Below are positions 51,561 through 64,000 of a stretch of 64,000 bases of DNA, piece after piece. Within the stretch, counting starts at the first letter, position 1; every line of letters begins with the position of its first letter. A program made the translations under genes and the position numbers. The notes beneath the pieces were generated by a model. The model searched no databases, was not told the DNA's origin, and saw only the letters and a list, made by a program, of their open reading frames with translations. Source of the stretch: Eubacteriales bacterium (lineage in GTDB: Bacteria; Bacillota; Clostridia; Oscillospirales; QAKW01); NCBI GenBank assembly GCA_045657265.1, contig JAZOSU010000013.1:74-64073 (forward strand). The letters are read 5' to 3'.

Positions 51561-51801
51561 GACGCGAACTAACATCCTTTGGCTGATTATGCGTGTTTTT
51601 GAGTCCATTATGTCGCTTTTAGCGTGCTTTTCCGTCCTATTTGTCCATTGATTCCATCGCTTACTTGCGTGGTTGTGGTCAAATATAGGGTCAAAATACA
51701 ACGACCACTCGAAATCTTTTGAGGATCAGAGTGGTCAATTTCATATTCATTTACCACCATCAGTATAACTCTACAACTGAATAAAGTCAAGTGTTTCTAA
51801 A

Positions 51802-51846
51802 AAGGCGAACTGCTCAATTCAATGAGTGGTTCGCCTTTTTTTATTT
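51802..51846 (+). terminator. terminator-like hairpin just upstream of the first element ORF
   Basis: AAGGCGAAC (51802-51810) / GTTCGCCTT (51829-51837) followed by TTTTTTTATTTT. Confidence 0.5.
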
Positions 51847-51869
51847 TCATCGAAAGGAGGTTTTACAGC

Positions 51870-52607
51870 ATGAGAAAAGACACCAATTTGGAAGGAGTGA
51901 AGTCTATAGCAAAGCAGCTTGTGATGGTGGACTTGTGCCTCACAGAGTATTCGCCTGTGGTGGTTCAGCATCCGTTTACTTCAAGCGGAATGGTTGCGAC
52001 TCCATCTGAAGACGGCATCCGCTTACTCGACATCACAAAGAGCAGTCATGATTTTAGAGAGTGGCAGAATTTCATCAAGGCTCAAATTGACCACGCCCGA
52101 AATGCCTATCACATCTACATGATGACAAACAAGCCGTATGCTCTTACCTTCTTAAAAATGGCGAAACCGTTTCTGTCAAAGCACGACTTCTCGGAAATCC
52201 TCTCTGATGCATGGATACGGTCTGAGAACCCTAACCTCGATGCCAACTTTACTCCGAATAAGTTGTTATCGTTGTTCAAGGATGCAGATCCGCAAATCCT
52301 CATGGACGGTGAAGAACGAGAGCAGCTTGAAGAACTTGATGATACTGTAACCGTGTATAGAGGTGTTACCTCCTACAATGCAGATAACATTAAGGCTTTG
52401 TCGTGGACACTCGATTATAAGACGGCTGAGTGGTTTGCACACCGCTTTGATGAAGACGGAACAGTCTATGAAGCACAAATCCCCAAGCAACACATCTATG
52501 CCTTGTTTAACGGCAGAGGTGAATCAGAAATCATTGTTGATCCGAAACACCTCACTGACATAACCGAATCACAAGGTATGGATACAGGAATGAATTTAAG
52601 TCAGTAA
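51870..52607 (+). CDS. hypothetical protein with C-terminal ADP-ribosyltransferase-like (R-S-E) motif order
   Basis: AAAGGAGG SD 9 nt before the ATG at 51870. The C-terminus has TVTVYRGV ... KALSWTLD ... GRGESEIIVDP in that order. Confidence 0.4.
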   Translation: MRKDTNLEGVKSIAKQLVMVDLCLTEYSPVVVQHPFTSSGMVATPSEDGIRLLDITKSSHDFREWQNFIKAQIDHARNAYHIYMMTNKPYALTFLKMAKPFLSKHDFSEILSDAWIRSENPNLDANFTPNKLLSLFKDADPQILMDGEEREQLEELDDTVTVYRGVTSYNADNIKALSWTLDYKTAEWFAHRFDEDGTVYEAQIPKQHIYALFNGRGESEIIVDPKHLTDITESQGMDTGMNLSQ

Positions 52608-52619
52608 AGGAGAAGACAA

Positions 52620-53198
52620 ATGAAAGAAACCTATAAGGTAAAAGTACCGAAGCACATCAAGGTTGGAGATCCTTGGTATTTCAAACAGTTTTCCGGCAGT
52701 GAGTTGGAACGACTGACCGTTGACAATGATATCCCGTCACATCTGACCGAGGCAAGAGTTACTCTCGAAGCAGAACCCTGCGAGGAAATGCCGGAATTAA
52801 CCATACTCGATATGACGCTCTATATCGCACCTAAGCAAACCATCGATACCTACCTTAGCGGTATGATGTATCCCTCACAGGAAATCAAACCGAAAGAGAT
52901 TGGCGTAGATACCGCCCGATACATTCTCGCCATTGGTGATAAAAGCCAAACCGTATATACAGGTGCTGATGGCGGTTGGGGTTGCTACTCCGAGTTTAAG
53001 CACAAAGACGGCAACAACAAACTGTTTGATGCAATCGTCTTGCAGATCGGTTTTAGTTGCGATTTCGATGACATGGAGAGCATGCGAAAGCGCCTTCACG
53101 AAATGTTCGAAGACGTTGAACAAATCGAAAACTTCGAAGTACCGGACGAAGATGAAGGCGAAGATGAAAATATGAATATTGGAGGTATGTCACAGTGA
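52620..53198 (+). CDS. hypothetical protein, acidic C-terminal tail
   Basis: AAGGAGAAG SD. 192 aa with tail DFDDMESM...FEDVEQIENFEVPDEDEGEDEN. The stop overlaps the next start (GTGA). Confidence 0.5.
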   Translation: MKETYKVKVPKHIKVGDPWYFKQFSGSELERLTVDNDIPSHLTEARVTLEAEPCEEMPELTILDMTLYIAPKQTIDTYLSGMMYPSQEIKPKEIGVDTARYILAIGDKSQTVYTGADGGWGCYSEFKHKDGNNKLFDAIVLQIGFSCDFDDMESMRKRLHEMFEDVEQIENFEVPDEDEGEDENMNIGGMSQ

Positions 53199-54046
53199 TA
53201 AATGCAATTATCAATCACAAAGACAAAACATCAGTGGTCGAATTCCCGATGGATCTGTACACCTTATATCACAGCCTTCATGAGATGGACTACCACGGCG
53301 GCCCCCACAGAGTGAACCTCACCGATAATGAAGAAGACGATATGCGTGTGAAGCTTTATTCCGATAATGACTTTGGAAACCACCTTATCCTTCTTTTCAA
53401 GGAAAGTGATACGCTCGAAGATGTCCACACTGTAGTCGGCGCAATTACCAATGCTCCGGATGAGGTCAAAGAGCAGCTTGAAGAATATATCCTTCACGAT
53501 CAGCTCGACAGCAAGGAAGAATTATATGACCTGCTCACCGAACTGAAGGAAGCTAACGCACCTGTCGTGACCACCTTCTACTGCCCGTTGTCCGGTCAGT
53601 TGAACGATGGCGAATACGATGACATGACCGAAGTGGATGGCAGATTTTTGAGAGATTATATCTCGGAAATCGAAGATGCATTAGACCGTGAACACTCTCC
53701 CGATTTCGAAATCGGTAATTACATTACGGATCATCCCACAGCCGATGCAAAGATCAAGATGGCAAGATGGTCGGTTGAAGAAATTGGCGGTGTGCTCTAC
53801 GGCAGAATCGACTGTCGTTCTGCTGAGGCGTTCACCCCCGAAGAAATCGAAGCTATCAAGGATGGCATATCCGGTCAGAACAGTGATGGTTTCGGTGAAG
53901 GCTTCGAACAGCGTGAAATCCATACGGATGACGGCGACTTGTATGTGTCGTTCTGGCAGTCAGGAAACGATTACTTCGTCCATACTCAAAGCGAGATGGA
54001 TGAGTATATAAATCAAGGCCAAGGCTTAAAGATGGGAGGAATGTAA
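53195..54046 (+). CDS. hypothetical strongly acidic protein (283 aa)
   Basis: GTG start coupled to the upstream stop. My hand count gives about 63 D/E against about 20 K/R. No motif recognised. Confidence 0.5.
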   Translation: MINAIINHKDKTSVVEFPMDLYTLYHSLHEMDYHGGPHRVNLTDNEEDDMRVKLYSDNDFGNHLILLFKESDTLEDVHTVVGAITNAPDEVKEQLEEYILHDQLDSKEELYDLLTELKEANAPVVTTFYCPLSGQLNDGEYDDMTEVDGRFLRDYISEIEDALDREHSPDFEIGNYITDHPTADAKIKMARWSVEEIGGVLYGRIDCRSAEAFTPEEIEAIKDGISGQNSDGFGEGFEQREIHTDDGDLYVSFWQSGNDYFVHTQSEMDEYINQGQGLKMGGM

Positions 54047-54049
54047 TAT

Positions 54050-54397
54050 ATGGCTGTGCTTTTCTCTGCGGTAACCGTTACGGCTATCGCAAAAGGCGAA
54101 CAATTGGAACTTCTTGTCGGTGGAGTTCCAAGAGAGTACGATGACCTTGTAGGTTGGACGGCTTTCGATAATTTCATTGGCGAAATCGATGAGGATATGG
54201 ATATCAGTGTTCACGCAGATGCATACATCTACGGCGAAGGCGAAATATTCAAAGCAACGCCCGAAGAAGTCGCATATTTCTATATGCGAAGAAACGACAA
54301 TGCTGACTTCCTCAATGACAGATGCCAAAACATTGAGAAGGTTGACTTCGACTTCAATTGGTCTACCGATGAATTATTTGGAATGGAGATGAAGTAA
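54050..54397 (+). CDS. hypothetical acidic protein (115 aa)
   Basis: GGGAGGA SD embedded in the upstream gene. About 25 D/E against 8 K/R by hand count. Confidence 0.45.
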   Translation: MAVLFSAVTVTAIAKGEQLELLVGGVPREYDDLVGWTAFDNFIGEIDEDMDISVHADAYIYGEGEIFKATPEEVAYFYMRRNDNADFLNDRCQNIEKVDFDFNWSTDELFGMEMK

Positions 54398-54721
54398 ATG
54401 AGCATTTTTCAGGAATGGGCTGAGTTAGCCAAGGAAAACAAAGCAAAATATCCGCCCGGCACTCGAATCGAACTGATTCAGATGAACGATCCGTTTGCTC
54501 CCGTACCTGCAGGTACTCGTGGTACTGTTAACCACGTGGACGATGCCGGTCAGTTGCATATGCAGTGGGATAACGGTCGTACCCTCGCCCTTGTTTCAGG
54601 TGAAGATGCCTTCAGAAAACTCACTGAAAAAGAACTCGCCGAAGAACAGAAGGCTGAGAAAGAACAGGAAAACAATGAAAATTTGGACGAGGACGAAAGT
54701 GGCCCCGTCATGACGATGTGA
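54398..54721 (+). CDS. DUF4314-domain protein
   Basis: PPGTRIELIQMNDPFAPVPAGTRGTVNHVDDAGQLHMQWDNGRTLALVSGEDAF matches my memory of the DUF4314 pattern found on conjugative elements. It has an acidic/K-rich tail. Confidence 0.55.
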   Translation: MSIFQEWAELAKENKAKYPPGTRIELIQMNDPFAPVPAGTRGTVNHVDDAGQLHMQWDNGRTLALVSGEDAFRKLTEKELAEEQKAEKEQENNENLDEDESGPVMTM

Positions 54722-54760
54722 GGTGAAACGGAAAAATAATAAGTAAAGCTCGGATGCTCT

Positions 54761-55927
54761 ATGGCTATTCGATTTTTTGACATGTTCTCCGGCATCGGCG
54801 GTTTCCGTTCGGGTCTTGAATGGATAGGCGGTTTTGAGTGTATCGGCCATTGCGAAATCGACAAATATGCTAACCAAGCCTACAACGCTATTTACGAACC
54901 GAAAGGAGAACTGTTTTATGAAGATGCAAGAACAATCAACCCCGATAACCTGCCCGATATCGACCTTATATGCGCAGGATTTCCTTGTCAGGCTTTTTCA
55001 ATTGCTGGAAGACGGCAAGGATTTGACGATGCAAGAGGAACTCTCTTCTTTGAAATTGCCCGAATTGCCGCCGTTAAAAGACCTCCATTTTTGCTACTTG
55101 AAAATGTTCCCGGACTCCTATCGCATGACGGCGGGTGGACTTTTGCGACCATCCTCCTTACGCTTTCTGAATTGGGGTACGATGTCACATGGCAAGTGCT
55201 TAACAGCAAGGATTTTGGTGTTCCTCAATCCCGAAAACGAGTGTATATTATCGGATTTCTTAGAGAGCGATGCGCCGGAGAAATATTGGCTTTCAATGAA
55301 GCAAATGTTAAGGCTCTTGCACAACGCATTCCCGGACGCGAAGGTAACCGTGTGTATTCCACAGACGGAGTCGCAATCACCCTTACAAGTAATGCCGGAG
55401 GATTCGGAGGAAAAACCGGACTCTACGAAATAAATACGCCGACCGATGAAGAAACACCCTGTGATTCGCAGGGTGTATTTTTTATCGATATGAACGAAGG
55501 TGCGAAGCTGACGGATACTGCTCGATGCATTACAGCACGGCAAGACTCCGGCATCAGCAAGCACAAAGGCGAACACTCAGGTGTTTTCGTTGAGGATCGC
55601 GCAAGAGCTGTCAACTCTCCCGAAAGAGATACGGTAAGACAGCAAGGCAGACGAATCAAAGAGCCGGACGAGCCGATGTTTACTCTGACAACACAGGATA
55701 AGCACGGCATTATGAGATACGGCAGAGTCAGAAGACTGATGCCGATTGAATGCTTCCGTCTCCAAGGATTCACTGATGAACAATTCAAGAAAGCAGAAGC
55801 TACCGGACTCAAGGACGGACGGCTGTACAAGATGGCAGGTAACGCAGTAAGTGTACCTGTCATTTCTGCTTTGGGAATGTTCATCAAATCAATCGCAGAC
55901 AAACACAATATTGGAGGTGAAAACTGA
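54761..55927 (+). CDS. dcm: DNA (cytosine-5)-methyltransferase, orphan
   Basis: Motif I FDMFSGIGGF, motif IV GFPCQAFS, motif VI LLENVPGL, motif VIII QSRKRVYIIG, motif X GNAVSVPV. Confidence 0.9.
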   Translation: MAIRFFDMFSGIGGFRSGLEWIGGFECIGHCEIDKYANQAYNAIYEPKGELFYEDARTINPDNLPDIDLICAGFPCQAFSIAGRRQGFDDARGTLFFEIARIAAVKRPPFLLLENVPGLLSHDGGWTFATILLTLSELGYDVTWQVLNSKDFGVPQSRKRVYIIGFLRERCAGEILAFNEANVKALAQRIPGREGNRVYSTDGVAITLTSNAGGFGGKTGLYEINTPTDEETPCDSQGVFFIDMNEGAKLTDTARCITARQDSGISKHKGEHSGVFVEDRARAVNSPERDTVRQQGRRIKEPDEPMFTLTTQDKHGIMRYGRVRRLMPIECFRLQGFTDEQFKKAEATGLKDGRLYKMAGNAVSVPVISALGMFIKSIADKHNIGGEN

Positions 55928-57204
55928 TGTTGACTAAGAAAGTTATGACTCTTGAATTATCAAGGGAAAACCAATTCTCCGATGGATACTTGTATAGATC
56001 CCTCGAACTTCCTGCACAAGAGTATGAAATCAGGGATGCATTACAGCAGCTCCGTCAGAGAAGTGCAGACATTACGCCCGATCAGATCGAAATCTATAAC
56101 AGCGTGTATATTCCGCAGCTTGAAGATAAACGGTTCGACAGTCCTACGATTGATGAACTGAACTTCTTTGCCAAGCGACTTGCAGCTATGGACGAGAACG
56201 ATATGGCGATTATGCAAGCACTATGCTCCCGTTATATCAAGGATGATGACGAACTCGTTAGCATCAAGGATCTCATCAATATGACATACGGATTGGACAG
56301 CGTGTCTGTCCTTTCCAATGTCACAAACGATGAGCAACTTGCAGACTTCGTTATTGAAAACGAGATGCAAGATGATGTAGCAAGCGTTCCCGAAAATGCA
56401 CGATACCTGTTGGACAAAGCGAGAATCGGTAAGTTGCAGCGTGAAATGGACGGTGGCGTGTACAGTGGCAAGTTCTATGTATGCACCGATCATTTCGAGA
56501 TGCCGAAGGTGTATGACGGCAAGACCTTGCCCGAATCAACGCATGAACCGTGGTTTGCTTTCAGATTGCAGGTTGCACAGGCACCGCAAAGCGATGAACC
56601 CTTCGCAGAACCTGTCGAATGGATATCTCTTCCGATGACGGATGAAGCGATGAAAGAGGTAGCAAAACGGCACAATGCATCAAGTCTCAAAGACCTTGTG
56701 TACTACGATTTTGAGTCGAGTGTACCTCAGATCACAACGGATGATTTCACGCAGATGCTCGATATTGAAAAGTTGAATGCATTAGCTTTCACTATGGCTG
56801 AGATGTCGCCGGATGAACAGATTACGTTCAAGGCAGCACTCGAAGCTGAAAGAAAACACGGCATTAACCTTGACGATATTTTGAACATCTCAAACAACCT
56901 GCACCGTTATGAGATGAATACCAACTGCGAAGGTGCTTCTGACTTCTTCAAGCAGTATCTGCTCACGCACATGGATACCAAGTTCGATGATCGTTGGCTG
57001 GATCCTCTTGTCTACCGCCGTGAAGGTAGCAGATTGCTTGAAAAGCTCGGTGCTACTGTAACGGACTACGGCATTATCTCCTCTGCCGGTGGCTCACTTT
57101 ATAAGCTCGTTTCCTACGATTCCGATGAATCTGAAACGGAAGATATTGCTCCCGATGAGGACGAGGACTTGGGCGAAGATGAAGGGATGGTGATGAGTTT
57201 ATGA
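55927..57204 (+). CDS. ArdA-like antirestriction protein, apparently two ArdA-like modules in tandem
   Basis: Residues ~20-200 align by eye with Tn916 ArdA (..LELPAQEYEI.., TIDELNFFAKRL, VPENARYLLDKARIGKL...GGVYSGKFYV). Residues ~230-400 repeat the pattern (LPMTDEAMKEV.., DIEKLNALAFTM, ..DYGIIS). The tail is acidic. The start overlaps the dcm stop (TGATG). Confidence 0.5.
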   Translation: MLTKKVMTLELSRENQFSDGYLYRSLELPAQEYEIRDALQQLRQRSADITPDQIEIYNSVYIPQLEDKRFDSPTIDELNFFAKRLAAMDENDMAIMQALCSRYIKDDDELVSIKDLINMTYGLDSVSVLSNVTNDEQLADFVIENEMQDDVASVPENARYLLDKARIGKLQREMDGGVYSGKFYVCTDHFEMPKVYDGKTLPESTHEPWFAFRLQVAQAPQSDEPFAEPVEWISLPMTDEAMKEVAKRHNASSLKDLVYYDFESSVPQITTDDFTQMLDIEKLNALAFTMAEMSPDEQITFKAALEAERKHGINLDDILNISNNLHRYEMNTNCEGASDFFKQYLLTHMDTKFDDRWLDPLVYRREGSRLLEKLGATVTDYGIISSAGGSLYKLVSYDSDESETEDIAPDEDEDLGEDEGMVMSL

Positions 57205-57341
57205 CCGAACTTGCGTGGCTCATTACCGGACTTCTGCTTGGCGGTTGTATCGGAATCACCCTCATGTGCTGTCTGCAGCTCAATCGTATCAACGCCTACG
57301 AAGCGGAGATACAAAAGCTGAAAGAGCAAATCAAGAAATAA
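57201..57341 (+). CDS. small single-pass membrane protein (46 aa)
   Basis: MTELAWLITGLLLGGCIGITLMCCLQLNRINAYEAEIQKLKEQIKK. ATGA overlap with the upstream stop. Not in the supplied ORF track because it is under 60 aa. Confidence 0.4.
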   Translation: MTELAWLITGLLLGGCIGITLMCCLQLNRINAYEAEIQKLKEQIKK

Positions 57342-57348
57342 GTAAAAC

Positions 57349-57390
57349 AACGGTGTCTTTCAAAATGAAGGACACCGTTCCTTTGTTTTG
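57349..57390 (+). terminator. rho-independent terminator
   Basis: AACGGTGTC (57349-57357) / GACACCGTT (57371-57379) followed by CCTTTGTTTTG. Confidence 0.6.
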
Positions 57391-58404
57391 ATTGCACCTT
57401 GTAGAAACGAGGTGATCAAAATAAAAACCCCTGTATCAAGAGTTGGAAACAAGACATCCATACTGCACATTCTGTATGCTTGTTTTCCCGTTAAATTTAA
57501 CAGGTTTATCGATGTATTCGGTGGTTCGGGTAGCGTGCTGCTCGGCAAACCGGAGGTACACTCCTTTGAAGTGTATAACGACTTTGACAGAAACCTCGTT
57601 AATCTGTTTCACTGCATGAAAGAAAGAACGATGGCAACGATCCGTGAACTCGGATTCTGCAATCTTAACTCCCGTGAAGATTTTATTGCCATCCGCCGAT
57701 TTTTAGAGCATGAACAGTTTAGCGATGATTACCTGTCAGAAGAACTGCATCTAACCGAGATCATGGTGCCTCCTCCCGATGCAAAGGAATTACAGGAATT
57801 GCGTAAGCGTATCACATTAGACCATGATGTGCGCCGTGCCGCTATGTTTCTGAAACTGCTCCGCTACAGTTATTCAAGCAGCGGAAAGTCCTTTGCCTCA
57901 CAACCGTTTGATATCCGAAGGCTCTTCGGTCTCATCCAAGAGCTTGAAGACAGAATGGCAAATGTGATCATTGAGAATCAGGACTTTGAAACCCTTATCA
58001 AGCACTATGACAGACCGGATTCGTTCTTCTATCTGGACCCTCCTTACTTCTCGACCGAGGATATGTATGAGGTGGGATTTGGATGGGATGACCATGTACG
58101 ACTCAGGGATACGCTGAAGAATATCAAAGGTAAGTTCCTTCTGTCGTATAACGATTGTCCCGAAATCAGAGAACTCTACGAAGGGTTTTCAATGCTCGAC
58201 TTCTCCCGAACACATTCAATGGCACAGAGATACGAAGCTGGAAAGCAATTCGGCGAACTGCTCATTGCCAACTATGACCTGTTCGAGAGAGAAAAGAACA
58301 AACCGCAACAGTTAACCCTCTTCAATGTCTATGGCATGGAAGAAGATTACGACTACGAAAAAATACTGAAGGAGTGTATTATATCATGCAAAATAAGACC
58401 TTAA
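57388..58404 (+). CDS. DNA N6-adenine methyltransferase (Dam/D12-class), orphan
   Basis: Motif I FIDVFGGSGSV and catalytic DPPY (FFYLDPPYFS). The start is uncertain: TTG at 57388 or GTG at 57412. Confidence 0.85.
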   Translation: MIAPCRNEVIKIKTPVSRVGNKTSILHILYACFPVKFNRFIDVFGGSGSVLLGKPEVHSFEVYNDFDRNLVNLFHCMKERTMATIRELGFCNLNSREDFIAIRRFLEHEQFSDDYLSEELHLTEIMVPPPDAKELQELRKRITLDHDVRRAAMFLKLLRYSYSSSGKSFASQPFDIRRLFGLIQELEDRMANVIIENQDFETLIKHYDRPDSFFYLDPPYFSTEDMYEVGFGWDDHVRLRDTLKNIKGKFLLSYNDCPEIRELYEGFSMLDFSRTHSMAQRYEAGKQFGELLIANYDLFEREKNKPQQLTLFNVYGMEEDYDYEKILKECIISCKIRP

Positions 58405-58691
58405 AGGAAACCATGTACGAATTCTGCGACATCGTTGCAGAGGAACTCGATAAGAAAGCATACACTGCGGTGATGCTTCCTATCCCTACGGATTTGCTTG
58501 TCAAAGCAGACATCAAGCCTAACGACAAACTGATTATGATTGCCGAAGATGGCAAGTTAACCATTCAGGCATCCTGCCGTATGGAATGCAGTGCTGACTG
58601 CAACAACTGTCCGGTAGATGATATCGAGTGCGATGGCGATTGTGAAAATTGCCCTTGCCGTTTTAATTGCGATGATTCGGAGGTGGACTAA
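58386..58691 (+). CDS. AbrB/SpoVT-like fold protein with 9-Cys acidic C-terminal tail
   Basis: VMLPIPTDLLVKADIKPNDKLIMIAEDGKLTIQ resembles a swapped-hairpin barrel. The tail reads CRMECSADCNNCPVDDIECDGDCENCPCRFNCDD. Overlaps the methylase 3' end by 19 nt. Confidence 0.45.
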   Translation: MQNKTLKETMYEFCDIVAEELDKKAYTAVMLPIPTDLLVKADIKPNDKLIMIAEDGKLTIQASCRMECSADCNNCPVDDIECDGDCENCPCRFNCDDSEVD

Positions 58692-58694
58692 AAT

Positions 58695-59012
58695 ATGGCG
58701 AAGTTGTTACGTATCCTCGGTAAGCGCGGTCGCATTACCATCCCTTATGAAATCCGTCAGCGTGTCGGTTTCCGATACAATGATGTGCTTTCCTTTGAGG
58801 AAAGTGCTGACGGCCGTAGTGTTGTTGTGAAACGTGAGAAGATCTGTGATAACTGCAAAAGAGAGCAACCCGAAAAAGATGACAAGGTTACTCTCTTTGA
58901 TTTTTTGAATGGCTTATCTCCCGAACAGCAATACGCAGCTCTCGTCCACCTCTCTATGAAGTGGGCAGAGCGTAAAGGCGGTGAAGAAAATGGCAGAGAA
59001 AACATTGTATAG
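58695..59012 (+). CDS. AbrB/SpoVT-family DNA-binding protein
   Basis: LGKRGRITIPYEIRQRVGFRYNDVLSFEESADGRSVVVKRE is a typical SpoVT-AbrB domain. Confidence 0.65.
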   Translation: MAKLLRILGKRGRITIPYEIRQRVGFRYNDVLSFEESADGRSVVVKREKICDNCKREQPEKDDKVTLFDFLNGLSPEQQYAALVHLSMKWAERKGGEENGRENIV

Positions 59013-59703
59013 ATGGTCTTTGCAAGAAGCTCAAAAGCTGGGTGAAGTCGACCTTTGGCGTGAGTCATATAAGGAAAACTGCACCTGCGCAAGAGCAATT
59101 GAAGACTTCATCGCCAACCACTACGCTGACAACTGCCTCAACACAGACGGCGTAGAGGAATTGATTGACAGATTCGGTTTTAACCGTCTCAATTGGGTGC
59201 TTGCGAATACCATTCAGCGAAAGGAAGCTGACGGCAGAATCCGTGAGGAAAACAAGGCTTGGGCGAGAACCACCTATATCCCTAACGATGATATTCGTTG
59301 GCATTACGAGGTCGACTCCCATCCCGGACTGACTGATTTGTTTACCAACCGTGTTCGTAAAGAATGGAACGCTCTCGGCTTGTTCGAGAAGAAACACTGC
59401 ACTAACGAAGGCGATTACGAAGGAAAGGTTCTTGCATTAAAACCGAGTGTTTTGAAGCATGAATATCAGTCGCCCGATTACCAACTGTTCTATGCAACAG
59501 GAGGTTTCGGGTGTGATCCTTCCAAGATCGGCACAGCAGTCTATGGATATTTCCTCAAAGACGATGAACACACCCATTTCAGACGTCAGGATTTTATCGG
59601 TGTCGTTGATGAAGAATACCTTCCCGATTGGGCAAAGGAGAAGCTCGAAGCACCCGACTCAGATGAGTCCGAAGATATTACTATTGGAGGTATGCAGCAG
59701 TGA
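58990..59703 (+). CDS. DUF3849-domain protein
   Basis: LYRWSLQEAQKLGEVDLWRESYKENCTCARAIEDFIANHY..N.L......ELIDRFGFNRLNWVLANTIQ.K..DGR...ENKAWA matches my memory of DUF3849. Confidence 0.65.
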   Translation: MAEKTLYRWSLQEAQKLGEVDLWRESYKENCTCARAIEDFIANHYADNCLNTDGVEELIDRFGFNRLNWVLANTIQRKEADGRIREENKAWARTTYIPNDDIRWHYEVDSHPGLTDLFTNRVRKEWNALGLFEKKHCTNEGDYEGKVLALKPSVLKHEYQSPDYQLFYATGGFGCDPSKIGTAVYGYFLKDDEHTHFRRQDFIGVVDEEYLPDWAKEKLEAPDSDESEDITIGGMQQ

Positions 59704-60368
59704 GAGTAAACATTTATCACATCAACAAAGCAAGGGATGTCAACGGCAAACTCTATTCCGTTTATCAGAACGGAGATGTAGTTGACCCCTCAATCTATGA
59801 CGAGGTATTCAGTGCAGAACTTGATACCACAAACCTCGAAGAAATCCATCGAATGATGAAATTCGAAGGTCATCCGCTGATGAGAGCCGCGAACCTTACG
59901 GTGTCCGATGTTGTGGTCATCAATGGCAGAGCCAGTATCTGTCAGCCTCGCGGATTTGAGGAAATCGACTTCGACGTGAGCAAAACGCAGAAGCCGGATA
60001 ACCTCATGCGTGTAGTGTATGTTGAACCCAACAAACCTGCCTATATTGCAGATGTTGAACATACACTGGAGGCAGAACAAAAGGCAGTTGGTGGCGGTCT
60101 TATTCAGCCTGTGTATTTAGAGGATGATAATACCTGCATCATTTGCAATGAAGAAGCGAAGCTCAACGGTATGGAAGGCAACAGACGGTTCGGAGATGGT
60201 ACATCTATCATCGCCGGACCGTTTTTTGTTTGCGGTCTTACCGAGGATGACTTTAGATCATTAACGGATGAGGAGGTGACGAAATATATGGACAAGTTCG
60301 CTGTGCCTGACCAAATCAGTCAGGACGAAGTCGAAGCCGACATGGGCTTCACATTTATCCCTATGTAA
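59700..60368 (+). CDS. YodL-like domain + DUF3846 domain protein
   Basis: GTG start overlapping the upstream stop. The N-terminus (IYHINK...YDEVFSAEL....LEEIHRMMKFEGHPLMRAANLTVSDVVVING) is YodL-like. The C-terminus (MRVVYVEPNKPAYIADVEHTLEAEQKAVGGGLIQPVY...IICNEEAKLNGMEGNRRF...GPFFVCG) is DUF3846-like. Confidence 0.6.
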   Translation: MRVNIYHINKARDVNGKLYSVYQNGDVVDPSIYDEVFSAELDTTNLEEIHRMMKFEGHPLMRAANLTVSDVVVINGRASICQPRGFEEIDFDVSKTQKPDNLMRVVYVEPNKPAYIADVEHTLEAEQKAVGGGLIQPVYLEDDNTCIICNEEAKLNGMEGNRRFGDGTSIIAGPFFVCGLTEDDFRSLTDEEVTKYMDKFAVPDQISQDEVEADMGFTFIPM

Positions 60369-60395
60369 CAAATAACGAAAGTGAGGTAACGCCTT

Positions 60396-60842
60396 ATGGC
60401 AACTAAAAAAACAACCCCCAAGGCAGCTCCTAAGACTGCCGAGAAGAAAACCAATCAGACTGTGGATAACAATCAGACCGCAGAAAAGCCTCAGTACCGT
60501 GTACCGTTCATTTCTGCCAAGATCGACAGACTTGTTGATTACGATGGTAGTAAGGTGAAGGCAATCGCAAGCGCGGTTATTGGCAACCATTTTGCCGTCC
60601 ACGGCTTCAAGGTTATCGAAAACGATGCCGGTGAACTCGCCGTTTTGAATCCTGCGACAAAGGGTTCTGACGGTAAGTATTATGATAACTTCCACGCAAT
60701 CAGCAAAGATGGTCGTGAAGCTATCAACGGATATATTCTCGATGCCTATGAGCAGAAACTCGCTGAGGAACAAGGCGAGGATCAGGATGCCGAACAGGGC
60801 GAAACTGCCGATGAAGACCAAACAGTCGGCCCCAGTATGTAG
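60396..60842 (+). CDS. SpoVG-like protein with acidic tail
   Basis: DGSKVKAIASAVIGNHFAVHGFKVIENDAGELAVLNPATKGSDGKYYDNFHAISKDGREAINGYILDAYE aligns by eye with the SpoVG core (MKAIASITID..FVVHDIRVI.G..GLFVAMPS.R...G.F.DIAHPI....RE.I...VL). Confidence 0.6.
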   Translation: MATKKTTPKAAPKTAEKKTNQTVDNNQTAEKPQYRVPFISAKIDRLVDYDGSKVKAIASAVIGNHFAVHGFKVIENDAGELAVLNPATKGSDGKYYDNFHAISKDGREAINGYILDAYEQKLAEEQGEDQDAEQGETADEDQTVGPSM

Positions 60843-60921
60843 CCTTTTCGGTTAAAGTTTAGCATAAACGCTGGACTTTTCAGTTTCTCTTTGTATCCTA
60901 AAGGTAAAGAGGTGAACTATT

Positions 60922-61797
60922 ATGATGAAAAGATTACTATCTGCCTTCCTATGTGCTCTCCTTATTGTGAGCCTTTCAGGATGCAAAACTCAACCTGTAG
61001 GTGATGGTTCCGAGATTGCTTCGAGTATCACCGAAACCGCTAAAATGACTGTGTCAGATGTGACATCGGGCAACGATGAAACGACAAAGAGCGATGACAT
61101 CACTGCCACAGAAAGCGAAACGGAAAGCACCGAAGAAAGTAGTTTGACTTCCGAAAAGAAATCCATACCTACAGAAAAAGAAACAACTGAAAAGGCAGAA
61201 CCACCCACACAAAAGGTTGAGGAAACAAAACCTCAAACCAAACCGACAGAAACGCAACCCGAATCAAAGCCAAAGGAAGAACCGGTTAAGGAAACGACCA
61301 CACCAACTGAACCTGTGGTAACAGAAACACCGTATGTAAGACCAAGTGCTTCTGAGGTGGAGAAAGCGGTTGTAAAGTATGTCAATCAATATCGACTTGC
61401 TCAGAGTAGCACCGAAACCACAACACTGCCCGGACTCACAAACGTGGCAAGACATCGAGCAAACCAACTGATATCAAACTTTGCTCATACCGACATCAGA
61501 ACAGTGTGCGCCGAACTCAAGTACGGCAAGTATGTGGACATGACGGAGTATGGGCATCCCGAAACGGACAACTACTATGAAGGCTATAACCGAGAAGCAA
61601 TCGCCAAAGGCGGTTGGGGCGGTACGGCTGATGAGATAGCAGAAAGAATCGCAACGGGATTTAAGAACAGTACAAATCACTGGAGATATGTTGGAGATTC
61701 AAAGTACGGATATATGTCGGTAGGCGTAACCTACAACGAAGCCGATGGAATGTGGTATGTGTGTATCTGTATGAGCAAAGAAAACTACGGCGGTTAA
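60922..61797 (+). CDS. lipoprotein with T/E/K/P-rich linker and CAP (SCP/PR-1-like) domain
   Basis: Lipobox VSLSGC. A low-complexity linker of about 110 aa. The C-terminal domain (KAVVKYVNQYRLAQ..., HTDI.., NHWRYVGDSKYGYMSVGV) looks CAP-like. Confidence 0.55.
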   Translation: MMKRLLSAFLCALLIVSLSGCKTQPVGDGSEIASSITETAKMTVSDVTSGNDETTKSDDITATESETESTEESSLTSEKKSIPTEKETTEKAEPPTQKVEETKPQTKPTETQPESKPKEEPVKETTTPTEPVVTETPYVRPSASEVEKAVVKYVNQYRLAQSSTETTTLPGLTNVARHRANQLISNFAHTDIRTVCAELKYGKYVDMTEYGHPETDNYYEGYNREAIAKGGWGGTADEIAERIATGFKNSTNHWRYVGDSKYGYMSVGVTYNEADGMWYVCICMSKENYGG

Positions 61798-61810
61798 ACC
61801 GTAATAAGCA

Positions 61811-61856
61811 AGGTGGAGTTTGATGCATAAGCATCAGGCTCCACCTATTTTTTATT
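61811..61856 (+). terminator. rho-independent terminator
   Basis: AGGTGGAG...CTCCACCT long hairpin (inner TGATGC/GCATCA) followed by ATTTTTTATTT. Confidence 0.6.
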
Positions 61857-61880
61857 TCAATCTATGAAAGGATGATTTGA

Positions 61881-64000
61881 ATGAAATCTATCAGTAACAA
61901 TTGGAAAAGAACAATGGCGATGTTGCTTGCGGTAATTATGGTGATTGCAGCATTCCCGATGAACGCCTTTGCCGCCGTTGCCTCTGATCTTCCCGAAAAC
62001 ATGGCTGACCACGCTATTCTTAGAGCGTTGGAGTACACTGGTTATGACGTGCAGAAGCAGAAGAATGATGGCACTCTTTATCAGACCAACAGTTATGGTT
62101 CGAGAACCCCTGCAGCTGTGCTTTCTAACATCAGTTATGGCACAAGCACCTCAGGTAAAGAAACCGTTGCAGACAGTTCTACGGTGACCGGCAAAGCACC
62201 GGCAATCGCAACCTTTGAAAGCAAAGGTCTTTGCTGTGCGTCCTTCGTAACCTATTTCGTTTGCAACTATCTGCCTAACATCGAAGGTGCGAATACACAG
62301 TTTATTACCGATGCAATCAATGCAACCGGAATGAACTCTCAGGCTGTTGTAACTTGGCAGACGGCTCTCAACAAACTTGCCAATGAAGGTAAGATCGAGA
62401 AGATCGGCACAAGTTCCTCTAATGTCAATCGAAGCAAACTCACCCCCGGCGACCTTATTATCTTTGGTACTGCTGAAAACTCCCATACCCACATCGCAGT
62501 ATATTCGGGAACCTACAAAGGCGTTGACTACATTATCCATGTTGGTAATGATAGAGGCCCCGAAATCTCCCGTGTTGACTGGATGGGTCAGGCTGGCGAC
62601 AAGTCTTCGTATCCTAACGCATACTACCATCTTCCCGAAGAATTCTTTGAGAATGACGGTACTATCGAAATCTACAAGAAGGATACCAATGGCAAGTCTC
62701 TTGCAGGTGCGACCTTTACCGCAACCGATAGTGCGACCGGTACGAAATATGTAATCGGCCCCACCAATTCCAATGGCTATGCGGAATACACTCTCCCTTA
62801 CGGAACTTATACCGTAGTAGAGTCAGCATTTCCTACCAACTACCGAGCATACGGTACTGCCTCTTGGACGGTTACGCTCGACAGTTCTTCTCCTAACGGA
62901 ACGGTAACTATCAATGCCGTAAATGAACTAATCCCCGGCAATTGTAAGATTGTCAAGACCAGTGAAGACGGCAAGGTTGACGGCATCGACTTCACCATTA
63001 CAGGTAACGGCGTTAATAAGACGGTCACGACTGCAAATGGCGGTCAGATCACCGTTAAGGATCTTAAACCCGGCACCTATACTGTGACCGAGAAAGCCAT
63101 CGACAAATACGAGCCTCAGTCGAGTCAGAGCGTAACAATCGTAAGTGGTCAGACTGCAACGGTCAACTTCTCCAACACCTTAAAGCGTGGCGACCTCAAG
63201 GTAACCAAGACTTCTGAGGACGGCCTCGTAGAAGGCGTACAGTTTAAACTCACAGGTACGTCCCTCAGCGGTGAAAAGATTGAGCAGTTCGCAGTAACCA
63301 ACGCAAAAGGTATCGCAACCTTCTCTGATGTCCTTATCAGTGGCAATGTGAAATACACCTTGTCCGAAGTAAACACCGCAGAGCGATACGAAGTTCCTGC
63401 TTCTCAGTCTGTGGCTGTTGAGTGGAATAAGGTGACCGAAACCTCCGTATATAACAAACTCAAGCGCGGTGATTTGAAGATCACCAAAACGAGTGAAGAC
63501 GGTATGGTTGAAGGCGTTAAGTTCCGCTTGACTGGAACCTCTCTCAGCGGTGAGAAAATCGACTTGACTGCTACCACCAATGCAAACGGTGTGGCACTCT
63601 TCGAAGATATCCTCATCACTGGTCATTCCACCTATACCGTAACTGAGGTTGACACCAAGGCGTATTATATCGCCCCTGTAGCTCAGTCGGTTTCTATCGC
63701 ATGGAATGAAGTTACCAACAAGTCGTTCTATAACGAACTCAAGCGTGGCTCTCTCCGTGTACAGAAGACTTCCGAAGATGGATTCGTGGAAGACATGAGA
63801 TTCCGTCTCACCGGAACCTCTGATTCTGGCATTAAGGTAGACGAAACTGTCTATACCGATGCAAACGGCGTTGCTCTGTTCGAAGATATCCTCATCGGCA
63901 AGAACTATGTACTGACAGAGGAAAAAACGCCTATCCGTTATGTCGTACCTGCTAAGCAGACTGTGGATATTGCGTGGAACAGCGTAACAGGTGCATCCGT
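61881..64000 (+). CDS. secreted surface protein: NlpC/P60-like cysteine peptidase domain + Cna-B/SpaA-type Ig-fold repeats (3' partial)
   Basis: I translated this open frame from the ATG at 61881 to the window end without meeting a stop. It is absent from the ORF track because no stop codon lies in the window. Signal peptide ...AAFPMNAFA|AVAS. Peptidase motifs GLCCASFV ... HTHIAVYSG ... IIHVG. At least five ~93-aa repeats follow (GxLxIxKxxEDG..VEGVxFxLTG...). Confidence 0.8.
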   Translation, partial: MKSISNNWKRTMAMLLAVIMVIAAFPMNAFAAVASDLPENMADHAILRALEYTGYDVQKQKNDGTLYQTNSYGSRTPAAVLSNISYGTSTSGKETVADSSTVTGKAPAIATFESKGLCCASFVTYFVCNYLPNIEGANTQFITDAINATGMNSQAVVTWQTALNKLANEGKIEKIGTSSSNVNRSKLTPGDLIIFGTAENSHTHIAVYSGTYKGVDYIIHVGNDRGPEISRVDWMGQAGDKSSYPNAYYHLPEEFFENDGTIEIYKKDTNGKSLAGATFTATDSATGTKYVIGPTNSNGYAEYTLPYGTYTVVESAFPTNYRAYGTASWTVTLDSSSPNGTVTINAVNELIPGNCKIVKTSEDGKVDGIDFTITGNGVNKTVTTANGGQITVKDLKPGTYTVTEKAIDKYEPQSSQSVTIVSGQTATVNFSNTLKRGDLKVTKTSEDGLVEGVQFKLTGTSLSGEKIEQFAVTNAKGIATFSDVLISGNVKYTLSEVNTAERYEVPASQSVAVEWNKVTETSVYNKLKRGDLKITKTSEDGMVEGVKFRLTGTSLSGEKIDLTATTNANGVALFEDILITGHSTYTVTEVDTKAYYIAPVAQSVSIAWNEVTNKSFYNELKRGSLRVQKTSEDGFVEDMRFRLTGTSDSGIKVDETVYTDANGVALFEDILIGKNYVLTEEKTPIRYVVPAKQTVDIAWNSVTGAS
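63183..64000 (+). repeat. 279-nt (93-codon) tandem coding repeats, three copies in window
   Basis: Units start at 63183, 63462 and 63741 (KRGDLKVTKTSEDG.. / KRGDLKITKTSEDG.. / KRGSLRVQKTSEDG..). They are diverged at the DNA level. Two more distant Cna-B-like units lie at ~62650 and ~62940. Confidence 0.8.

Follow-up and report, generated by a model that had tools for sequence, protein, structure and literature searches.

ArdA is the textbook DNA mimic, a protein that carries resistance-bearing conjugative transposons across restriction barriers. In ArdA of the Tn916 Orf18 type (PF07275; PDB 2W82), domain 1 (residues 3-61) is a three-stranded sheet with a short helix and domain 2 (residues 62-103) a four-helix bundle, while domain 3, which forms the dimer interface and holds both the 'anti-restriction motif' and the VF motif, is essential for ArdA activity (PMC2731889). 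The published docking model with EcoKI has domains 1 and 2 touching the ends of the DNA groove of the methylase and pointing towards the HsdR subunits. ArdA domains also occur in Firmicutes polyvalent proteins, which have been proposed to act at entry (PMC5512222), and anti-defence genes are known to cluster in leading regions (PMC11541004). Here, we analyse a stretch of 64,000 nucleotides (hereafter, the window) from a gut Clostridia genome, that of an Eubacteriales bacterium (assembly GCA_045657265.1, contig JAZOSU010000013.1), in which three consecutive genes, A192, B283 and C115, are part of a modular array that lies at the edge of an integrative conjugative element. One of their products, B283, is, as far as its sequence tells, a previously unrecognised ArdA-derived architecture joined to an undescribed domain.

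A192 (52620..53198), B283 (53195..54046) and C115 (54050..54397) are co-oriented, translationally coupled open reading frames (ORFs) on the + strand, exactly where an earlier note, made from the letters of the window alone, had placed them. A192 and B283 overlap by GTGA, B283 and C115 are separated by a 3-nt gap, the stop of C115 overlaps the start of the following DUF4314 gene (TAAATG), and nothing on the + strand between the three genes resembles a promoter or a terminator. The note could name no motif in their products, and none was matched in Pfam (even at E<=10), PHROG or NCBIfam, or in sequence searches of the PDB with single sequences and with profiles. It also called them very acidic, which is borne out by D/E against K/R counts of 39/19 for A192, 63/20 for B283 and 25/8 for C115 (the last two identical to its own hand counts), isoelectric points of 4.44, 4.26 and 4.05, and net charges per residue of -0.104, -0.152 and -0.148, respectively. 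The other 1,403 ORFs of the genome, taken as a host reference, have a median of -0.012 per residue and a 1st percentile of -0.089. Only 0.4% of them reach -0.10 or lower, and all three proteins fall within this most acidic fraction.

The link with ArdA lies in the N-terminal half of B283 (residues 1-122; 53195..53560). Pfam finds no match to PF07275 in any of the three proteins at E<=10, although it does in a 425-aa product encoded nearby. Profile comparison by hhalign, for which ten domains from Pfam-positive loci in related genomes were aligned as authentic ArdA, reaches further. Residues 13-112 of B283 align to positions 17-106 of authentic ArdA, with a score that rises from 86% for a 38-sequence profile to 94.6% (P 6.7e-8) for a 72-sequence profile. 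The same is true, from 84% to 95.6% (P 1.1e-8), against a second, independent family of tandem ArdA proteins that adjoins B283 relatives. Among the negative controls, unrelated families did not exceed 3.3%, reversed profiles scored 0.2-0.6%, and none of twenty block-shuffled ArdA profiles rose above 3.5%. A caveat is that the comparison with the 425-aa ArdA-like family gives only 0.7-5.6%, the weak alignment nevertheless falling on the equivalent motif. The AlphaFold2 (AF2) model of B283 is confidently predicted as two domains (pLDDT 89.3, pTM 0.80), of which residues 1-121 comprise three strands, a helix and then four more helices, and residues 124-280 an alpha/beta domain, and the order of elements in its N-terminal half matches that published for ArdA domains 1 and 2. 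On these grounds, the N-terminal half of B283 is very probably a remote homologue of ArdA domains 1-2.

The C-terminal half (residues 123-283; 53561..54046), which the alignment and the AF2 model outline as an undescribed acidic alpha/beta domain, is different. In place of domain 3, B283 has this unrelated domain of 160 residues with an invariant motif of its own, and since domain 3 is absent B283 is best described as ArdA-related, not as an ArdA. Neither C115 nor the C-terminal half of B283 could be cast as the 'missing' domain 3, both scoring at most 0.5%. In a 38-sequence alignment of the family, the N-terminal half is variable and the motifs of the C-terminal half are strongly conserved: P131, K186, G203, E217, GQNSDG.GE..E (227-238) and W254 are invariant, and FYCPL, LYG(K/R)I and VSFW are conserved. 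Its hallmark is the loop bearing the near-invariant GQNSDGFGEGFEQ motif. Net charge behaves otherwise, because only eight columns across the B283 family hold a positionally conserved D/E, while the median net charge per residue is -0.107 for the family and -0.151 for the C domain, which equals that of authentic ArdA domains (-0.151). Net charge that is conserved with few fixed acidic columns is the pattern expected of a charged decoy surface.

The C domain is remarkably widespread. An exhaustive profile search (E<=1e-3) gathered 2,415 representative clusters at 50% identity, and architectures were tallied among the best 149 of these. The N-C architecture of B283 accounts for 90 of the 149, the C domain stands alone in 26 and is accompanied by other unassigned sequence in a further ten, and tandem C-C forms exist as well. 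In seven, a genuine ArdA domain is fused to it (ArdA-C, ArdA-ArdA-C, N-ArdA-C and N-N-C-ArdA), where ArdA either replaces the N module before the C domain or joins it. Other fusion partners are LPD28, DUF3848, DUF6329 and, in a protein of 331 aa (L082:4773-5768; MT835617.1, a human-faecal scaffold deposited as 'UNVERIFIED Bacteriophage sp.'), DUF4314. That scaffold carries the same type of array, with tandem ArdA-like genes and a D12 methylase, and may be a mislabelled conjugative element. A stand-alone C domain of 141 aa with the motif GQMSDGIGEGFEQ is encoded by a 735-kb uncultured phage (L081:4986-5411; LR756501.1), and no relatives of B283 or of the ArdA fusions were found among the PLSDB plasmids. 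Single in-frame stops occur in three B283 relatives (L020, L024 and L055, a TGA in the last) and in one C115 relative (L016), which may be pseudogenes, sequencing errors or cases of recoding.

Such behaviour recalls the modules of polyvalent proteins (LPD, DUF3848/3849, YodL) described by Iyer, Burroughs and Aravind (2017). Like them, the C domain recurs alone, in tandem and fused, in varied architectures with domains involved in conflicts and in conjugative elements as well as phages, and in the window B283 has DUF3849, YodL and DUF3846 genes nearby. Unlike them, it matches no LPD or other model in Pfam (2025 copy), and the genes here are separate, small and coupled instead of forming one giant protein, with no processing peptidase seen in the window. 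In the searchable literature, LPD28 appears only in the 2017 paper on polyvalent proteins, DUF3846 once, in an unrelated cyanophage paper, and DUF4314, DUF3848 and DUF3849 not at all; none of the families of the three proteins has been characterised there.

C115 is a small acidic protein with 325 homologues. None of them bears a functional name, one being entered at NCBI as 'hypothetical protein'. In 16 of the 22 loci that have it, C115 adjoins a B283 homologue, and it does so in both gene orders: ten loci have B then C with the exact 3-nt gap seen here, and five have C then B with an overlap of 7-10 nt. The B-then-C order was also seen on three more independent contigs (L088-L090), at ~58% identity. 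An adjacency that outlasts a flip in gene order suggests a physical or functional pair, so that C115 is likely a partner of B283. It is, at the same time, absent within <=6 kb on each side of most B283 relatives (36 of 58 loci). C115 has no relatives in the phage collection, and hhalign finds it unrelated to ArdA, B283 or A192 (<=0.4% against authentic ArdA, 0.1% against A192).

A192 is another protein altogether. Its AF2 model (pLDDT 86.1, pTM 0.82) has a mostly beta globular core spanning residues 1 to ~170 and a disordered tail (residues 178-192, pLDDT <50), the latter corresponding to the acidic C-terminal run that the earlier note had pointed out, which ends ...DEDEGEDENMNIGGMSQ. None of its 40 homologues is named. 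GDPxY and VD are invariant in the core, TA.Y and T..DG.WG are nearly so (VDTAxY, TGADGxWG), and the acidic tail is variable. These motifs resemble by eye those of DUF4241 (PF14025), a kinship dismissed by hhalign (0.1% against eight DUF4241 domains). Nor was a relationship with ArdA detected, A192 scoring at most 0.4% against authentic ArdA and, like C115, at most 0.7% against ArdA-type profiles, and there are no A192 relatives in the phage collection. The Foldseek searches were similarly unrewarding, without a neighbour in the PDB for the A192 model and without a significant one in the PDB or BFVD for that of B283. The ordinary enzyme folds or pure disorder that, for the earlier note, would have spoken against mimicry were thus not what came out: A192 and B283 both give confident globular models without a neighbour in the PDB.

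A192 relatives at 44-58% identity lie repeatedly at or near the edge of an element, just after host rplA in two loci (L095 and L096) and just after large serine recombinases in three (L091-L093), and in L094-L096 they head arrays with relatives of C115, DUF4314, Dcm and B283. In these last loci, the A192, B283 and C115 families co-recur in shuffled order, which makes them shuffled modules and not a fixed trio. Eight loci (L083-L087 and L091-L093) represent an element type different from that of the window, with A192 relatives beside a trio of large serine recombinases and with genes for a DinG-like helicase, an ImmA/IrrE peptidase, KilA-N, Metallophos and Imm51.

The element comes into view at 52 kb of the window, where G+C rises from ~0.37 to ~0.455. 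Its first gene, up261 (51822..52607, + strand), belongs to a family without an assigned function (phrog_4776, E 1.4e-32) that co-occurs with the A192 and B283 families in other elements, adjoining B283 relatives in many loci and A192 relatives in L083-L086. A strong terminator-like hairpin of 18 pairs followed by a T run (51799-51840) overlaps its longest possible start, so the real one is probably the ATG at 51870. ARAGORN found no complete tRNA between 51000 and 52000. Downstream of C115, as the earlier note had indicated, come genes for DUF4314 (54398..54721, + strand; PF14192, E 1.2e-29), a C5 cytosine methylase (54761-55927, + strand; Pfam) and the 425-aa ArdA-like protein (55927-57204, + strand; PF07275, E 6e-8), to which a D12 adenine methylase (57388-58404, + strand; Pfam) can be added. 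The 425-aa family matches authentic ArdA twice, over residues ~26-188 and 233-342 (98.7% and 97.2% by hhalign), which identifies this neighbour as a tandem ArdA. In many loci, a second family of tandem ArdA proteins, of ~380-400 aa, is encoded immediately ahead of the B283 relative. Further on lie genes for DUF3849 and YodL+DUF3846 and then a Cna-B-repeat surface protein (61881-64000 and beyond), inside which the contig ends, 215 bases past the window.

This arrangement is not peculiar to one genome. Fifty-nine related loci of gut and rumen Clostridia have B283 relatives at 28-100% identity, and in all 59 these share the strand with a common pool of neighbours (typically DUF4314, Dcm, ArdA-like and Dam genes), the order and content of which vary. 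The resemblance is with the anti-defence islands of plasmid leading regions (Samuel et al., 2024), which are likewise packed arrays on one strand that combine anti-restriction genes, orphan methylases and uncharacterised families. The difference is that we are dealing with an integrated Clostridia element, not a plasmid, with neither an oriT nor a relaxase on the contig.

How might these proteins work? Our best explanation overall, which we hold with only slightly more belief than doubt, is a modular establishment and anti-restriction array in which B283 would be an ArdA-derived blocker. B283 would have kept the outer modules of ArdA (domains 1 and 2) and swapped the central, dimerising domain 3 for an equally acidic conserved domain that appears to circulate independently, as a module of its own, in the conjugative elements and phages of gut Firmicutes. 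Its acidic surface would bind and block a host defence enzyme that targets nucleic acids, a type I restriction-modification enzyme being the first candidate, presumably shortly after the arrival of the element in a new cell. C115 would probably be a bound partner or modulator of B283, and A192, an unrelated and mostly beta protein whose acidic tail is flexible, would probably be a further accessory factor in counter-defence or establishment. The likeness to ArdA is manifold, since B283 shares with it the homologous domains 1 and 2 in the same order of elements, a strongly negative charge, a place beside orphan methylases in an array of a Firmicutes conjugative element, and a C domain that is fused to ArdA elsewhere. 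With Ocr of phage T7 and other DNA mimics, the likeness is in net negative charge, which is comparable, and in the proposed use against restriction; Ocr is all-helical, whereas AF2 predicts B283 as mixed alpha/beta and A192 as mostly beta, with no fold match. That B283 counters restriction seems to us marginally better than an even bet, whereas strict DNA mimicry by B283 we consider doubtful. The proposal of the earlier note that all three are candidate DNA mimics or decoys thus gains ground for B283, through its N-terminal homology, its C-domain fusions with ArdA and a family-wide C-domain charge equal to that of ArdA domains, but gains none for A192 and C115, for which no link with ArdA was found. 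As a hypothesis, mimicry looks reasonable for the former and weak for the latter two, for which only charge and context suggest a counter-defence role.

Several observations weigh against this explanation. Acidity is a trait of the whole island, as seven of its first 12 ORFs (window 51822-64000) are at or below -0.09 per residue, including those for DUF4314, the ArdA-like protein, an AbrB-like protein and DUF3846. Charge therefore does not single out A192, B283 or C115 and is weak evidence for any one gene. B283 has no counterpart of ArdA domain 3 (its C-terminal half scores 0.5% against ArdA), so the mechanism of ArdA is not simply transferable, and an ArdA structure (2W82) is not among the best 50 PDB matches that Foldseek lists for its model. 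The GQNSDGFGEGFEQ loop, judging by its conservation, would suit a specific site for binding or catalysis better than a generic mimic surface. Profile and family searches detect no link between A192 or C115 and any characterised anti-defence protein, and some A192 relatives adjoin recombinases in neighbourhoods where no ArdA or methylase gene was called. As for the element itself, its remainder (conjugation machinery, relaxase and integrase) is absent from this 1.56-Mb assembly, where a G+C-based search of the metagenome-assembled genome returned only host surface-protein genes, and a relaxase shares the contig in just one relative, where it is encoded 52 kb downstream and on the same strand, a distance compatible with a leading-region position after circularisation.

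Among other explanations, one is prompted by the ends of the proteins. An acidic run followed by GG[MIL] is found in 35 of the 615 non-B283 ORFs of the related loci surveyed (L001-L059), on ~nine unrelated families, and in none of the 1,403 host ORFs (P ~4e-19); the bare GG[MIL] tail is found in three of 16 island ORFs and five of the 1,403 host ones. Such tails, which are predicted to be disordered, could mark substrates of type IV secretion that are delivered into the recipient with the DNA, for which there is a precedent in protein transfer through an F-type system (PMC8406263) and a proposal in the delivery of polyvalent proteins (PMC5512222). The DNA offers a simpler account. The Shine-Dalgarno sequence GGAGG of B283 (53181..53185, + strand) lies in frame within the codons of A192, where it is read as the Gly-Gly of ...IGGMSQ, and that of C115 (54035..54039, + strand) is read in the same way within B283, as the Gly-Gly of ...KMGGM. 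Tail codons are GGA GGN in 63 of 70 cases, the third base of the second Gly being free and the first Gly codon never being GGT or GGG, and nearly every tail overlaps a start codon or has one close behind it (~0-8 nt). In other cases GGAGG sits in frame 2 at the end of an ORF, which yields ...MEGM tails in some B283 relatives and ...MEVQ or ...GMEMK tails in those of C115, and host ORF ends display the same two frames. From this codon and frame pattern, the tail is mainly the in-frame Shine-Dalgarno sequence of the coupled downstream gene, and the idea that it is a secretion or degradation signal was downgraded. Since authentic ArdA proteins of other elements also lack the tail, a secretion mark strikes us as highly improbable, even if ribosome binding does not account for the acidic runs or for a remaining preference for the Gly-Gly frame (island 42:17, host 27:48). 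Chance or decayed frames without function would explain the missing annotation and the few relatives with an internal stop. They would not explain hundreds to thousands of homologues at 28-100% identity with conserved length and motifs, confident AF2 models and conserved translational coupling, which makes their probability practically negligible.

Establishment or housekeeping factors unrelated to defence deserve more attention, acidity then being a trait of the element lineage. They might act, for instance, on replication or segregation, on the SOS response or on the cytoskeleton, which are roles proposed for YodL-type domains like those encoded nearby. The island-wide acidity described above, shared with DUF4314, DUF3846 and the AbrB-like protein, would fit, as would the presence in the same array of YodL, DUF3846 and DUF3849 modules, the proposed roles of which are not in counter-restriction, and the conserved GQNSDGFGEGFEQ loop, which suggests a site for a specific ligand or partner. 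We nevertheless find this fairly improbable, given the N-terminal homology of B283 to ArdA, the repeated fusion of its C domain to ArdA and the fact that most loci embed B283 relatives tightly between two orphan methylases and ArdA-like genes. Small acidic proteins are commonly enzyme inhibitors, which leads to yet another possibility, that is, that these are inhibitor or immunity proteins, A192 neutralising the product of up261 and C115 being an antidote or regulator of B283. Homologues of A192 and up261 do occur together in two element types (that of the window and that of L083-L086), and the adjacency of B283 and C115 is kept through the order flip, as in two-gene modules. Against this, A192 relatives are without up261 in L087 and L091-L096, the majority of B283 loci manage without a nearby C115, and family scans, together with Foldseek for B283, reveal no enzymatic fold or toxin family for B283, nor any for up261, so we regard such a role as distinctly improbable. 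A last idea keeps the defence context and extends it: the GQNSDGFGEGFEQ domain would be a new and very widespread counter-defence effector module of mobile elements and phages in gut Firmicutes. By taking the place of ArdA's central domain, it would retarget an ArdA-like scaffold, perhaps within a heteromer of B283 and C115, towards a defence other than classical type I restriction, which we consider unlikely.

An anti-restriction array with B283 as an ArdA-derived blocker would, if confirmed, have implications that go beyond this locus. The combination of ArdA domains 1 and 2 with a swapped third domain would widen the known anti-restriction architectures, and it would do so through a C domain that counts >2,400 representative clusters and is currently invisible to annotation pipelines. 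As plausible counter-defence genes, A192, B283 and C115 are three candidates for restriction-alleviation screens and, if confirmed, they would provide a handle on how the elements of gut Clostridia establish themselves in new hosts.

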